Below are positions 31,501 to 52,500 of a DNA stretch of 64,000 nt, in pieces; positions within the stretch are counted from its first letter, which is position 1, and every line of letters begins with the position of its first letter. This stretch comes from an uncultured Verrucomicrobiae bacterium (lineage in GTDB: Bacteria > Verrucomicrobiota > Verrucomicrobiia > Chthoniobacterales > Chthoniobacteraceae): NCBI GenBank assembly GCA_963769025.1, contig CAVYKI010000003.1:128001-192000 (forward strand), written 5' to 3'. A program made the position numbers.

Positions 31501-34500
31501 CGGCGGTCTTTCACCACGTGCTCAAGCCGGGGGAGCAGTACGAAGTGCGCATCCGACTCACGGGACCAGACACGCAACGATCGGCGGATCCGTTTGGCGA
31601 TTTTGATGCCGTTTTCAAAACGCGCATCCGCGAGGCGGACGAGTTCTACGCGGCGGTGCAGTCGCCGCTGATGAGGCCGGATGAACGCCTCGTCCATCGT
31701 CAGGGGCTCGCGGGGATGATGTGGTCGAAGCAGTTCTTCCACTACATCGTCGAGGACTGGATGGAGGGAGATCCCGGATTGCCGAAACCACCGGAAAGCA
31801 GGCAGCGCGGGCGGAATTGGGAATGGCGGCACCTTTACAACGAGCGCGTGATGTCGATGCCGGACCCGTGGGAATATCCGTGGTACACGGCGTGGGATCT
31901 GGCGTTCCATTGCGTCCCCATCGCGCTCATCGATCCGGCATTTGCCAAGAGCCAGCTCGATCTGCTGACGCGCGAGTGGTACCAGCACCCGAACGGGCAG
32001 ATCCCGGCTTACGAATGGAATTTCAGCGACGTGAATCCGCCGGTCTTCGCGTGGGCGGCGTGGAAAGTTTACAAGATGGAGGAGGCGCGTCGGGGAAAGG
32101 GCGACATCGCCTTTCTGGAGACGGTCTTTCACAAGCTGATGCTGAACTTCACCTGGTGGGTGAACCGCAAGGACTCCGAGGGGAAGAACATCTTCCAGGG
32201 CGGCTTCCTCGGGCTGGACAACATCGGCGTCTTCGACCGCAGCGCGCCGCTCCCGACCGGGGGACACCTGGAGCAAAGCGACGGCACGAGCTGGATGGGG
32301 ATGTTCAGCGTGAACATGATGAAAATCGCGCTGGAGCTGGCGCGCAAAAATCCCGTGTACGAGAACATCGCGACGAAGTTCCTCGAGCATTTCCTGGGCA
32401 TCGCGCATGCGCTGAATTCGCTGCATCTGTGGAACGAGGAGGATGCCTTTTTCTACGACGTCCTGCACCTGCCGCACGGGGAAAGGCTGCCGCTCCGCCT
32501 GCGCTCGCTCGTGGGCCTCATGCCGCTGCTCGCGGTGGAGACGCTGGAGCCCGAGGAGCTCGACGAGTTGCCGGGATTCAAGGCGCGCCTGGAGTGGTAC
32601 CTGAACTACCGGCCCGACCTCACGAAGCTCGTGTCGCACTACGAAATCCCCGGCCTCGGCAACCGGCGGCTCATCGCGCTCGTGCGCGGGCAGCGCATGA
32701 AGCAACTGCTCACGCGCATGCTCGACCCGGGGGAATTCCTGAGCCCGTTCGGCATCCGGTCCGTGAGCAAATTCCACGCAGATCATCCGTACGAATTCAC
32801 CGTGCGCGGAACGACGTATCGCGTGGACTACGAGCCGGGCGAGGGGCGGACGTCGCTGTTCGGAGGAAACTCAAACTGGCGCGGCCCGGTGTGGTTTCCG
32901 CTCAATTACCTGTTCATCGAGTCGCTGCAAAAGTTTCACCATTACTACGGCGACGACTTCAAGGTGGAATGCCCGACCGGGAGTGGGAAGATGCTGACGC
33001 TGGGTGAAACCGCCGACTACCTCGCCAAGCGGTTGAATTCGCTGTTCCTCAAAGGCGACGACGGCAGCCGCGCTTTCCAAGGACGCGACCGGGGCCTGTT
33101 CCAAAAGCCCGGCTGGGCCGATCAGATTTGGTTCCACGAGTACTTTCATGCGGATGACGGATCGGGTCTCGGCGCTTGCCACCAGACCGGCTGGACCGGG
33201 CTCACGGCCGACCTTCTCGAGCAACACGCGGAGCGGCGGGCGCAGCGTGCGACCACCGGAACACCGCTCCTTGGCATTCCGCCGTCCAACCAGCCCGCGC
33301 AGCGCGAATGAAGAAGCTAGTCGCTGCATGTTGCGGGATCGCCGCGGCCGCCGTGTTGCTGAGTTTTCGGTTCGCGCGCGGCAGGCACGAGGCCGCGAGA
33401 AATCTCGTGCTGAAGGAGCCCCCACCGCAGGCTCAACCGAATCCGGAGCAAAGCCGCGCGCCTTTTGCCGATGACCTCGCGAAGGGCGGCACGCCTGCCA
33501 GCATTATTAAAAACCCACCCGGCGCTGAACCGGGCGTGACACTGAACGTGCAGGGGCTCGCACCGATCCCGCTCACCGGCCGGAACGGCGCACCATCGGA
33601 GAAGACCGTCGAAGCAGTGACCGGCCGCGCCGATCTCTCCGACACGACCAAGGCGCGAGCCTTGATCGAGTTGCTGCCCACCCTGCCACCCGAGGCGCTC
33701 GCACGCGCGGCGGAGGAGGCGGCCACCCGGCTGTCCGACACCGACTACACGGCCGCGCTCCGACCGACGCTGATTGCTCCGCAGACGCACGGGATGGCGA
33801 TGAGCGTGCTTTTCGCGGACCTCATGCAGCGCCCGGACTCCGTCTCGCTGCCGATCCTCGCCACGATCGCACAGGACCCGAAGCATCCGTATTCGCAAAA
33901 CGCGCGGGAGAATCTGCAGTTCCTGCTCGGTCAGGATTTCGGAAATGACTGGGCCAGATGGAACGAAGCGATCCGGAATCGCATCGGCTCACCGGAGAAG
34001 TGAGCGGCGATCTCAGCGGAATGCCGGGCGAGCTTCGGCACGCGGCCCGGCAGGTCTGCGGGGCGGGGCGCCGATGTCGGTGGCGGTCACGGGATTCGGC
34101 GGCGCGGGAGCCTGTGGCGGTGGCTGCGGCTTGAGTTCGCGGCCGGATTTGGTGACGGGCTTGCCGTCCTTCGTGGAGACATCCTCGACGCGATAGAGCG
34201 ACCCGTCGGCGTGTCGCAGCAGGGGCCGCATTTCGTCGAGGCTCAACGGGCGCGCCCCGCGCCGGCCAAAGACGACCGTCTGCCCGCCGGTCTCGTCGGT
34301 GACGCGATCGCGGTCGAGTCCGCGGGAGACGGAGAGCGCACGATGCTTGGTGGGATACGAGGCGATGAGCCGCGGCGAAGGGCGCGGGCTGAATCCCGCG
34401 GCGCCCTCGACGGTGTCGGGCGAGATCAGCTGGACCACGCGCAGGCCGTTTTTCCCGTCGGCGACGAGCGCATACATGGATGCGGCGACGGAGCCGATCT

Positions 34501-49500: not shown

Positions 49501-52500
49501 CGATGTTGCCGTTCGCGTCCTTCAGCGGCTCGGCGAGCGGCACGGTCACGGACTGGCCGTCGATCTGGAGCGTGACGGTCTTGCCGTAGTCGCCCTCCGT
49601 CGGGGAATCGAGGCGGACGAGCTGGCCGTCGATGTCGCGGCTGAACAGCCCTTCGTCGTCATCGCGAATGAACAGGCCTTCCCCAAGTCCGGGAATCATG
49701 GCGTGCCCTCCGTGCGTGTTCCCGATGGCGACAGGTGGCTCGCGACGTCATCGGGGAAAAAGGTGAGCGCCGTGAGCAGCGGCATCGGCACCGAGCGGCC
49801 GAGCCCGCAGATGGAAGCCAGCTCGATCGCCTTGCCCATTTCCTTGATGAGCGGGACGAGTTCATCGTTCCAGCGATCGGCGCTGATTTTTCCCGCGAGG
49901 AGGTGCGCGCCGAGCGACGCGAACTTCTGCGACCCGATCCGGCACGGGACGCATTTCCCGCACGACTCGTTGCGGAAAAATTCGATGGAATTGACGGCCT
50001 GCTCCACCATGTCGCGGCCCTCGGCATAGACGACGAGCCCGGCGCCGAGCGCCTGCGTGGGGCTCAGGCGCGCGGAACAGGTTCAGCTCGAGTTCCAGAT
50101 CGAGGATGTCGAGTTCCGTCGCCGCGGGATCGAATCCGCGGCGAGCCGCAAGCGCCTGCCACGCCTTGTTGTTCACATGGTCGCGCGGCAGGCCGTCGGG
50201 CGCGGTCAGCTTCGCGGGCAGAAAGCCGCCGGACGGTCCCGACGGCGCGAAGCCCTTGAGCGCCCGATCACCCGCGATGCCCTGGCAGTACTGCTCGCCG
50301 TGGATGAGTTCGCGCAGGGTCATTCCCATCGGCACCTCGTACACGCCGGGCCGCTTCACGTCGCCGGAGACGGAGAAAAAGCGCCGGCCCTGCCAGCCGT
50401 TCACGCCGAGCGCGGCGTAGGTCTTGCCGCCGTTGATGACGATGTACGGCACCCACGCGAAGGTCTCGACGTTGCTCACGAGCGTCGGGAGATCGTGCAG
50501 GCCGTTGGTCTCGAGCTTCGGCGGCATGTTGCGCGGCTCGCCGCGGCGATCGGACATCGCCTCGATGAGCGCGCTCTGCTCGCCGCAGATGTAGCCGCCG
50601 GGGCTGACGAAGACCGAAATCGGAAAAGGCCGGCCAAGCACCGACGCATTCGGCCCGCAGAATCCGAGCTTCGCCGCGCGCTCGATCTCGGCACGGCATG
50701 CCTCGATCTGCTCGTCGTATTCGTGGCGGATGTAGATGAACCCCTGCGTCGCCTCGGTGATGAGCCCGGCGAGGATCACGCCCTCGACGATCATGTGCGG
50801 CGCGCGGAGCAGCAGCTCGCGGTCCTTGAAGGTGGCCGGCTCGCTCTCGTCGCCATTGACGACGATGAACGCGCGCTCGTCCGTCTCCCGCTGCCGCGCC
50901 TTCCGGACCGCATCGCGCACATCGCGCCACTTTTGCGTCGCCGGGATGCCCGCGCCGCCCATGCCGCGAAGATCCGCGTCCTTGAGTTCATCGAGCAATG
51001 CGTCCGCCCATCCGCCGAGCGCCGCGCCCTTCGCCCAATCCGTCTCCGTCTGCCAGCACAGCACCGCGCCGGCGACCTCGGGCTCCATCGGGAAATCAAC
51101 GCGCATCTGGCGGATGCATCCCTGGCGAAATTCCTCCACGCGCTCCGAGCCCCATCCGGATTGTGTCTTGAGAGCCTCCGCGGCCGCCGCGAGCGACGTG
51201 TCGCGCGCCGCGATCGCCTTTCGCACACCGAGATACTCCGGCGTCTTGCCGCCGTACGGATCGATCATCCAATCCTTCGCCGCATAACCTTGGTCCGCAT
51301 CGTGATCAGGCTCGAGCGGCTCATCCCGCACGCACGCCTCGACCACGCCTCGCAACTCATCAGCCGAACGGCCAAGATAGTACTGCTCATGTCCCGAACC
51401 CTGCACGCTGACGCAAGCCGCCGGCGCCCGATCGCACCGGCCCACGCACGAGACTCCCTCGACCGCGACATGCTCACCGACGAGCGATTGCAACTCGCGC
51501 AGCACCGCTCCCGAACCCGCAAGATGGCAGGTCGTGTCCCGGCAAACGCGCAGGACGACCTTCTTCGGCGGCGAAAGCTGAAAGTGAGGGAAGAAACTCG
51601 CCACCGCCTGCAGGCGATACTGCGGCACGCCCGACTCGTCCGAAAACTGTTCGAGTGCCTCTTTTTTCAAGAACCCGAACTCCTCCTGAATCCGCTGCAA
51701 CGCAGGGACCAGCGTCGCGCCGTAAAGATTGAGAGTCGTCCCGGAGCTCATCTTTTCACACTCACCGAACGGCGGTTCAGTGAAAAGAAAATGGTGCGGA
51801 AATCTTCACGGGATTCCGCCTTGGTCACCCCTTCGCACAATTTGAGTCTGCCGCGATCGCGGCGGAGGTCGCCTTACACGTTGAGCAGTTCGCGAGTTTC
51901 CCTCTCCGTCAACGGCGGCGGGCCGTCCGCGTCTTCCACCAGCTCCGCCTTGCCACGCTTCCTGCGCCACCACTGCGCGACGTCATCGAAGAACGAATAG
52001 AACACCGGCGTGGCCAGCAGCGTGAGCAGGAGCGAGAGCGTCTGGCCGCCGATGATCACGCCGGCGATGGTGGTGTTCATGCTCGCGCCGATGCCGCGCG
52101 CGAAGATCATCGGGATCATGCCGGCGACGAAGGCGGCCGTGGTCATGAGGATGGGGCGCAGGCGGTCTTTGTTCGCCTGGAGGATGGCGTCGAGCCGCGG
52201 CAGTCCGCGGGCGCGGAGCTGGTTGGTGTGGTCGATCTGCAGGATGCCGTTTTTCTTCACCATGCCGAAGAGCACGAGCACGCCGAGCATCGAGAAAATG
52301 TTCAGCGATTCGCCGAAGATGAGCAGCGAGAGCAGGGCGAAGGGCAGCGTGAGCGGCAGCGCGAGCAGGATGGTGAAGGGGTGAATCCACGACTCGAATT
52401 GCGCGGCGAGCACGAGATACATGAAGAGCGCGGACATGAGCATCGCGGTGACGAAGGCGTTCACGGTGCGCGCCATTTCCTTGGAGCGTCCGACGGCGCC

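Follow-up and report, generated by a model that had tools for sequence, protein, structure and literature searches.

The NuoE+NuoF fusion gene and its neighbor, an iron–sulfur protein with two cyclic-nucleotide-binding (cNMP) domains that we call the wire, probably form a swappable intake for an already named, membrane-crossing gene set that would feed multi-haem cytochromes. All coordinates are positions within the 64-kb window, the whole stretch of DNA analysed. Taken as a whole, our proposal is that the pair takes in electrons on the cytoplasmic side of a membrane-crossing reductase, with the cNMP domains most likely its gate, and we consider this probable. It builds on the observed domains, cofactor motifs, gene linkage and interchangeable heads. 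The downstream clusters, PCC4 and ptd, owe their names solely to gene content; the NuoEFG head now seen on their Fe-S subunit suggests that NAD(P)H is the partner on the cytoplasmic side, and NuoEF plus wire would be a soluble module of two proteins, amenable to assay. If a cyclic nucleotide does act as the gate, this would tie second-messenger signaling directly to envelope redox chemistry.

The flavoprotein gene (49696..51751, minus strand) encodes a fusion of NuoE and NuoF with a [2Fe-2S] cluster, an FMN/NAD(P)H site and one [4Fe-4S] cluster (N3). It has the Pfam domains 2Fe-2S_thioredx, Complex1_51K and SLBB and the motifs NGDESEPATFKDR and YICGEQSAL, which bears out the fusion proposed in the preliminary description. 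A one-base shift near 50070 interrupts the gene, and the N3 motif is found in the second frame (49696-50010); in 8/8 relatives the fusion is unbroken and 680-686 aa long. Likewise, the wire gene is shifted near 49444 and unbroken in relatives (821-838 aa), confirming that genes are frameshifted here. These frameshifts are probably assembly errors, because the complex I genes of the same genome, at a separate nuo locus, are also in pieces. In sequence, the flavoprotein matches the Methylorubrum FDH1 beta subunit best (7e5z_B, E 5e-69). In a NuoF tree, a single clade of 31 rows is recovered (100/99); since the motif filter retained 15 of 26 fetched loci, removed the complex I rows and left some row labels with the wrong motif, the tree names no donor.

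A glutamate in NuoF selects NADH over NADPH. At this position, 46 of the 67 NuoEF copies with the motif have a glutamine, so that NADH is uncertain as the substrate and the protein may prefer NADPH; of the original term "NADH-diaphorase", the electron-input module stands and the NADH specificity is in doubt. The NADH-site motif DESEP[GAS]T[FI]KDR, onto which A202 and M204 of BfuB presumably map, is present in 66/72 flavoproteins (unreadable in 6), and a ferredoxin motif (BfuB clusters B2-B5) occurs in 0/72. BfuABC enzymes are defined by clusters B2-B5 of BfuB and, in the bifurcating family, by A202/M204, according to the available portion of PMC9304861. As far as that text describes BfuABC (HydABC), our pair has homologous FMN, B1, C1 and A-type clusters and is without B2-B5 and the Ala/Met signature, and is therefore not bifurcating, as had been suspected.

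The wire (47239..49699, minus strand) combines a NuoG/FdsA-type head, two cNMP domains and a HydN/DmsB-like domain with four [4Fe-4S] clusters. The head contains a [2Fe-2S] cluster (Fer2_4) and two [4Fe-4S] clusters, without the His-ligated cluster; the C-terminal domain, most like HydN/HycB, provides 16 cysteines for its four clusters. All 28 cluster cysteines are invariant in the 120 closest homologues. The head overlays FdsA, NuoG and HydA (Z ~20, rmsd 1.8-2.7 Å, 207-222 residues), and the single-chain model is confident overall (pLDDT 92.6, pTM 0.88); all NCBIfam scores and the PF13247 match fall below cut-off. The canonical His-ligated cluster motif (N5 of NuoG, A3 of HydA) was found in 0/68 wires, with a His-Cys-Cys remnant in the acidobacterial copies. 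The domain order given earlier (Fe-S head, two cNMP domains, four-cluster C-terminus, no H-cluster or Mo site) thus holds, apart from the NuoG/HydA likeness of the head, which does not extend to this cluster. The earlier homologue totals include headless cNMP-ferredoxins; the full architecture is seen in ~65 of 149 further 50%-cluster representatives (counted by eye), and a single-chain NuoE-F-G-cNMP-ferredoxin fusion also exists (P0143). Coevolution analysis of the wire (363 rows, effective number 134) gave mostly noise, in which the head-to-tail pairs 307-706 and 248-703, at ranks 23 and 30 and surrounded by many implausible pairs, weakly hint that head and tail may touch within the chain. 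Two other identities were rejected: a displaced complex I module (N5 motif in 0/68, no Mo-like domain, a separate nuo locus) and an [FeFe]-hydrogenase or formate dehydrogenase, as no H-cluster or molybdopterin domain is present in the wire and the models match only to residue ~314, below cut-off.

Pfam scores the cNMP domain of the wire at 117 bits (cut-off 27.5). Domain 1 has a canonical pocket with what we take to be PKA-like spacing, and the domain 2 pocket holds an insert of ~33 residues that varies in length. The pocket signature G-E..R is retained in 65/68 copies of domain 1 and 62/68 of domain 2. A class III cyclase gene lies within ~10 kb in 9/39 loci, compared to 1.2 expected, an excess with p=0.10 if all genomes had the highest density seen, and related genomes are not independent; none lies beside the pair in the window. 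In our literature search, mostly outside subscription papers, we found no paper describing an Fe-S electron chain controlled by a cyclic nucleotide. Given the conduit, we lean narrowly towards gating by a cyclic nucleotide. The main competing explanation keeps the conduit and takes the cNMP-fold domains to be structural, or to bind haem, gas or metal via an invariant cysteine, without second-messenger control. CRP-fold domains with other ligands are known from CooA and DNR, and Cys409 in the domain 1 pocket (invariant in 120/120 homologues), the variable insert in pocket 2 and the 30/39 loci with no cyclase nearby are all compatible with it. We nevertheless regard this explanation as unlikely, as both pockets retain their Gly-Glu and Arg in copies from three phyla, the spacing in domain 1 resembles that of PKA, the best fold matches are cNMP-binding domains, and cyclases, metallo-beta-lactamase-fold genes and metallophosphoesterases recur as neighboring genes.

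The pair had been called fixed, and it is: the NuoEF gene lies beside the wire in 72/75 loci, and in 61/61 where the upstream flank is at least 2.5 kb. The paired form is common among Acidobacteriota, Planctomycetota and Verrucomicrobiota from soil and fresh water, with Tautonia sociabilis (L061) as an isolate carrier; phage records gave only partial Fe-S matches. Among the 39 loci with at least 8 kb of flank on both sides, 33, from three phyla, have a membrane protein and a decahaem cytochrome within 10 kb of the pair. The membrane protein is present in 9/9 related genomes with the pair and in 0/17 without any wire form (kin, some incomplete). The multihaem link, previously put at 3 of 7 genomes, is therefore far stronger than it seemed. 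In acidobacterial loci, the genes run NuoEF, wire, membrane protein, decahaem on one strand, and the wire is directly upstream of the membrane gene in both acidobacterial and headless loci. In the window, the pair and the membrane/decahaem genes are convergent, tail to tail, and so do not form one operon. The pair is apart from the cytochromes in 4/8 close relatives and in 6/39 of the wider loci.

The membrane protein (44658..45596, plus strand) is a five-helix inner-membrane protein resembling the PCC4 IMP and PtdF, and is followed by a PtdG/PCC4-like decahaem cytochrome c (45606..47216, plus strand) with ten CxxCH motifs and an N-terminal hydrophobic anchor. Further along lie a c554-like, PtdD-like tetrahaem cytochrome (43258..44397, minus strand; three CxxCH and one CxxxxCH), a secreted HbpS/GlcG-like protein with FG-GAP repeats (40583..43176, plus strand; split by frameshifts here, a single gene of 858-862 aa in relatives), a probable outer-membrane beta-barrel (38168..40457, minus strand; several pieces here, one gene of 782-789 aa in relatives) and a 1371-aa decahaem cytochrome fused to LVIVD repeats (34013..38128, minus strand). 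The latter also has ten CxxCH motifs, so that both earlier counts of ten are confirmed. The nearest named Atlas clusters of the barrel are alginate-export barrels, which is a lead only. No pentahaem cytochrome is found within the window cluster; proteins with five CxxCH occur in 10/75 related loci, at least two of them being pieces of the LVIVD gene. A search for a sigma-70 promoter or a convincing terminator found neither.

The five helices of the membrane protein are taken from its structure model. WX3HX13H motifs at 94-112 and 283-301 and SGFFG at 135 suggest that it binds two b haems; in its homologues, two WX3HX13H motifs, as published for inner-membrane proteins of PCC3/PCC4, are found in 43/43 and SGxxG in 42/43. 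Pfam matches bearing on a ferric reductase or cytochrome b561 fold are weak (Ferric_reduct in 4/43, best E 0.03; Ni_hydr_CYTB in 13/43). With the membrane-protein model, Foldseek gave no match at E<=0.001 and the VIA fold search only generic helical bundles (best Z 9.6, chemoreceptor bundles), PDB sequence searches with its alignments returned nothing significant, and plasmid records gave no match to an acidobacterial query. In a complex model, the four-cluster domain of the wire is predicted to dock on the cytoplasmic face of this protein, scoring 0.67 against 0.00 for the best control (contact agreement at least 92%, partner pLDDT at least 81), a score that may be helped by likeness to solved ferredoxin/cytochrome b complexes. 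The docking mark is reached by 116/157 solved and 2/215 mismatched pairs, counts that hold only roughly here. The modeled interface places wire residues 652-668 and 790-799 (Cys655/658/661/795) next to Trp94 and His280, close to the predicted haem ligands His98/His286.

NuoEFG is one of several interchangeable heads (NuoEFG, TrxB-like or none) on this core. Sphingobium herbicidovorans has the core of the wire together with each of the six partner proteins, and a TrxB-like FAD/NAD(P) head takes the position of NuoEFG. Elsewhere (L179, L183), headless wires adjoin a complete outer module, and no NAD(P)H enzyme is encoded in the vicinity. Headed and headless wires are mutually exclusive. Screening 41 relatives for a TrxB-type donor yielded partial matches only, and their distribution did not follow that of the headless form; with one query, neither headless relatives nor genome G000 gave a counterpart of the TrxB head.

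Linkage and the cofactor motifs of the pair support its original reading as an electron-input module, and a conduit that takes electrons from NAD(P)H into the periplasm seems to us quite probable. NAD(P)H would be oxidized at the FMN of the NuoEF protein, and electrons would pass from N3 to the [2Fe-2S] and the two [4Fe-4S] clusters of the NuoG-type head, through the four clusters of the C-terminal wire domain, to the two b haems of the membrane protein. From there, they would reach the anchored decahaem and then the tetrahaem, HbpS-like and barrel/LVIVD decahaem proteins in the envelope, a mode of action closer to that of a ferric reductase or NADPH oxidase than to complex I. The two cNMP domains would most likely gate this flow, with cAMP or cGMP binding moving the head against the four-cluster domain; as outward flow would spend membrane potential, there would be reason for a gate. 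More tentatively, and possible rather than probable, cAMP or cGMP may directly switch an Fe-S wire within one polypeptide and so meter NAD(P)H electrons to an outer-membrane cytochrome, with the NAD(P)H head as a plug-in and a headed, planctomycete-related version having taken the place of the headless one at the same membrane protein in Verrucomicrobia.

The flow is presumably outward, and the opposite, inward or quinone-linked flow from an outside donor via the cytochromes and the membrane protein to quinone, or uphill to NAD(P)+ via the pair, appears quite improbable. Direction cannot be read from sequence, headless forms can do without an NAD(P)H enzyme, and PCC4, found in iron oxidizers, was proposed to carry electrons inward to quinone (He et al. 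2017; main text of PMC5566968); against this stand the recruitment of two unrelated NAD(P)H heads by one core, the Fe-S domain occupying the cytoplasmic face of the membrane protein in the complex model, and the separate complex I of the genome. A third explanation makes the pair a soluble diaphorase under cNMP regulation that serves ferredoxin or some other cytoplasmic enzyme and has an incidental cytochrome neighborhood. This would suit its detachment in half of the eight close relatives, its convergent orientation in the window and its HydN/HycB-like C-terminus, and is made very improbable by the 33/39 linkage, the 9/9 co-occurrence, the same-strand order in Acidobacteria, the mutual exclusivity of headed and headless wires and the docking model.

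Read as a gated intake, the pair can be compared with several known systems. Like the NuoEFG, HoxFU, FdsGBA and Methylorubrum FDH1 diaphorases, it has an FDH1 beta-like flavoprotein and a head that overlays FdsA, NuoG and HydA; unlike them, it has no catalytic Mo/W, H-cluster or NiFe partner, has lost the His-ligated cluster, and is fused to cNMP and four-cluster domains. With ferric reductases and NADPH oxidases (FRD), the membrane protein shares HX13H pairs on helices 3 and 5 and the proposed NAD(P)H-to-outside logic, whereas its input is an Fe-S chain instead of an FNR-type FAD domain and its output a decahaem. A verrucomicrobial porin-multihaem cluster also has a barrel adjoining a multihaem cytochrome, with eight haem sites by description compared to ten here, and the available text contains no Fe-S, NADH or cNMP terms (PMC5615132). 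The ptdABCDEFG cluster, also compared by description, has a tetrahaem PtdD, a PtdE with cNMP and 4Fe-4S domains, a ferric-reductase-like PtdF and a decahaem PtdG, which our genes match by description and in the order E-F-G; its FAD/NAD(P) oxidoreductase PtdC is replaced here by NuoEF and the NuoG head, its pentahaem PtdA is absent from the window cluster, and NuoE, NuoF, LVIVD and Verrucomicrobia are not mentioned in the available text (bioRxiv 10.1101/2023.11.21.568154). The inner-membrane protein of PCC4 is described in the main text of PMC5566968 as having five helices, with WX3HX13H on helices 3 and 5 and SGXXG on helix 4. Its subgroup II shares with our locus this protein with two WX3HX13H and SGXXG, an adjacent Fe-S gene (here a PF13247-type gene, below cut-off and convergent), tetrahaem and decahaem cytochromes and a nearby barrel gene; in our locus, the pentahaem gives way to an LVIVD decahaem plus an HbpS-like protein, the redox input is NuoEF with a fused NuoG head, and the wire carries cNMP domains, for which that main text has 0 matches. 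The downstream part is thus already named, as PCC4 subgroup II and ptdDEFG, and because the wire core recurs with a TrxB-like head or none, the pair and its core are a variant of it.

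Two adjoining genes in the window, a NuoE-NuoF fusion gene (NuoEF; 49696-51751, minus strand) and the gene for an Fe-S protein that we call the wire (47239-49699, minus strand), form a pair that is real and widespread. The wire combines a NuoG/FdsA-type head, two cyclic-nucleotide-binding (cNMP) domains and a 16-cysteine ferredoxin domain. Of the frameshifts mentioned in the preliminary description, each of these two genes has one; both genes are whole in all 8 relatives that have them, and the frameshifts in the window are likely assembly errors because the complex I genes of the same genome are broken up too. 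All 28 cluster cysteines of the wire are invariant across its 120 closest homologues, while the His-ligated cluster motif is missing from 68 of 68 full-length copies in named genomes, acidobacterial copies bearing a remnant of it. An AlphaFold model of the copy in genome G001 has a pLDDT of 92.6 and a pTM of 0.88.

The full wire architecture was counted by eye in ~65 of 149 further 50%-cluster representatives, and one representative joins NuoE, NuoF and wire in a single 1483-aa chain. Keeping the best 80 of 624 relatives in a genome scan gave 75 loci from Planctomycetota, Verrucomicrobiota and Acidobacteriota, 2 of them probably duplicates of relatives counted before; neighbours were counted with profiles made from these loci themselves. 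NuoEF is present in 72 of the 75 and accompanies the wire in all 61 loci that extend 2.5 kb or more upstream, which bears out the earlier claim of a fixed gene pair. Among the 39 of these loci with at least 8 kb on each side (well-flanked), 34 encode a five-helix membrane protein (window 44658-45596, plus strand), 33 this protein together with a decahaem cytochrome (45606-47216, plus strand), 14 a decahaem cytochrome fused to LVIVD repeats, 12 a probable outer-membrane barrel and 10 an HbpS-like protein. In 80 metagenome loci, the membrane gene occurs 71 times, the decahaem 58 and NuoEF 45. In acidobacterial loci NuoEF comes first, followed on the same strand by wire, membrane protein and decahaem; in many planctomycete loci, membrane protein and decahaem precede NuoEF and wire. 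An MGH1-like glycoside hydrolase (GH63; 30552-33311, plus strand) adjoins the cluster in the window and likewise in 7 of the 75 genome loci and 10 of the 80 metagenome loci. Window ~27-38 kb, with the LVIVD gene and the glycoside hydrolase and aldolase neighbours, recurs in heavily frameshifted form at a contig end (G000:C7:1-20000, L175); this second copy probably represents a variant strain or a duplicated assembly.

The flavin-site motif, found in 67 flavoproteins, reads GEQ in 46 and GEE in 21; the flavoprotein's PDB matches have GEE. In E. coli NuoF, NADPH use reportedly rises when this Glu is lost. Four of the 75 loci (L061:12479-13900, L067, L102 and L110) have a gene for a soluble NAD(P) transhydrogenase close to the cluster, which fits a link to NADPH. 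Complex I and FDH-type NuoF genes are present separately in the genome that holds the window. Extra ferredoxin motifs occur in 0 of 72 flavoproteins and 66 of the 72 carry the form DESEPxTxKDR, which excludes the enzyme from the bifurcating family in the sense of PMC9304861, in line with the previous suggestion that it is probably not bifurcating.

For the 312-aa membrane protein itself there is no Pfam hit, and fold searches gave no clear match. Two WX3HX13H motifs are present in 43 of 43 aligned copies and SGxxG in 42; according to He et al. (PMC5566968), these are marks of the PCC3/PCC4 inner-membrane proteins and are read as two b haems. A complex model of wire residues 318-821, the membrane protein and two haems scored 0.67, possibly helped by likeness to solved complexes, whereas the best of three controls scored 0.00; its contacts agreed to 92% or more, with a partner pLDDT of 81 or above. 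Among solved pairs, 116 of 157 reach the mark for this score, against 2 of 215 mismatched ones, counts that are only a rough guide for the present case. In the model, the Cys655/658/661/795 end of the four-cluster domain faces the membrane protein near His98 and His286. Several structure alignments place the opposite end of that domain (~700-770) where FdsA, NuoG and HydA have their catalytic domain, a placement with which two weak covarying pairs agree. Together, interface, overlay and covariation suggest that the modelled wire would be continuous.

The head is exchangeable, the same core occurring with a NuoEFG-type head, a TrxB-like one or none. The headed wire occurs in 9 of 41 related genomes; 13 others encode a headless cNMP-cNMP-ferredoxin form, whose gene immediately precedes the membrane and decahaem genes; no genome has both among the matches listed. 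The membrane gene is found in 9 of 9 headed and 12 of 13 headless genomes, in 2 with a contig-end wire fragment and in 0 of the remaining 17, some genomes being incomplete and kin not independent. In 4 of 8 headed relatives, pair and cytochromes lie on separate contigs. In Sphingobium herbicidovorans, a homologue of the wire core bears a TrxB-like FAD/NAD(P) domain in the head position, and the genome also encodes homologues of the membrane protein, decahaem, tetrahaem, HbpS-like protein, barrel and LVIVD decahaem. Headless copies L179 and L183 count against a simple head story: they adjoin the complete outer set, and no NAD(P)H enzyme is seen around them. Next to the LVIVD gene of headless genome G016 lies a NuoF gene paired with an 894-aa NuoG/FdhA-like gene (L125:12676-16577), a candidate donor with one occurrence. 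In the headless Chthoniobacterales genomes retrieved (L126-L134), G037 excepted, the LVIVD decahaem gene has no adjoining barrel or HbpS-like gene.

In trees from which two rows were left out for a missing motif, Verrucomicrobia with headed and with headless wires share one membrane-protein clade (SH-aLRT 100), whereas their wires do not group together, the headed ones nesting on a long branch among planctomycete copies. An AU test without the Sphingobium row, chosen after tree inspection and with the long branch present, rejected the grouping of all verrucomicrobial wires in one clade (p=0.0008), a result that is no more than suggestive. Displacement of one wire by another would account for the pair's odd, convergent position in the window.

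The cNMP pockets keep Gly-Glu and Arg in 65 of 68 (pocket 1, with an invariant Cys) and 62 of 68 copies (pocket 2, with a variable-length insert). A class III cyclase gene lies within ~10 kb in 11 of the 75 loci, which come from the best 80 of 624 relatives. The 39 well-flanked loci account for 9 of these, versus 1.2 expected (p=2e-6, or p=0.10 if the highest density seen is applied) from cyclase densities in 15 of the 39 genomes, taken at roughly even steps. In G042, G044 and G050, the neighbour is one of just two cyclase matches per genome; the window has none near the pair. Cyclic nucleotides would probably control the putative NAD(P)H intake. Directly 3′ of the wire in two relatives (L021:6531-8357, L022:12887-14713) is a metallo-beta-lactamase/REC/GAF gene, possibly for a cyclic-nucleotide phosphodiesterase (NCBIfam hit far below cut-off). 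In G001, a TPR-S and cyclase-domain gene (L019:4366-6240) overlaps the decahaem gene end and precedes an MmeI-type restriction-modification gene. FHA or PilZ domains replace or join the sensor domains of five headless wires (P0231, P0240, P0245, P0227 and P0212), which suggests other signal inputs.

No description of the NuoEFG-headed form was found in the literature as far as available; the papers covered also included PMC5615132, PMC9304861, PMC13556243 and bioRxiv 10.1101/2022.05.06.490989. The PCC4 and ptd supplements may show more of the redox genes. The PCC4 (PMC5566968) and ptd (bioRxiv 10.1101/2023.11.21.568154) papers report no function, and the text of the latter mentions neither NuoE nor NuoF. 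By description, rather than by sequence alignment, the cluster's downstream part matches both PCC4 subgroup II and ptdDEFG; it differs in lacking the pentahaem of both and the PtdC of ptd. The pair probably represents a variant of this named kind of cluster and would feed electrons from NAD(P)H into a chain that crosses the membrane.
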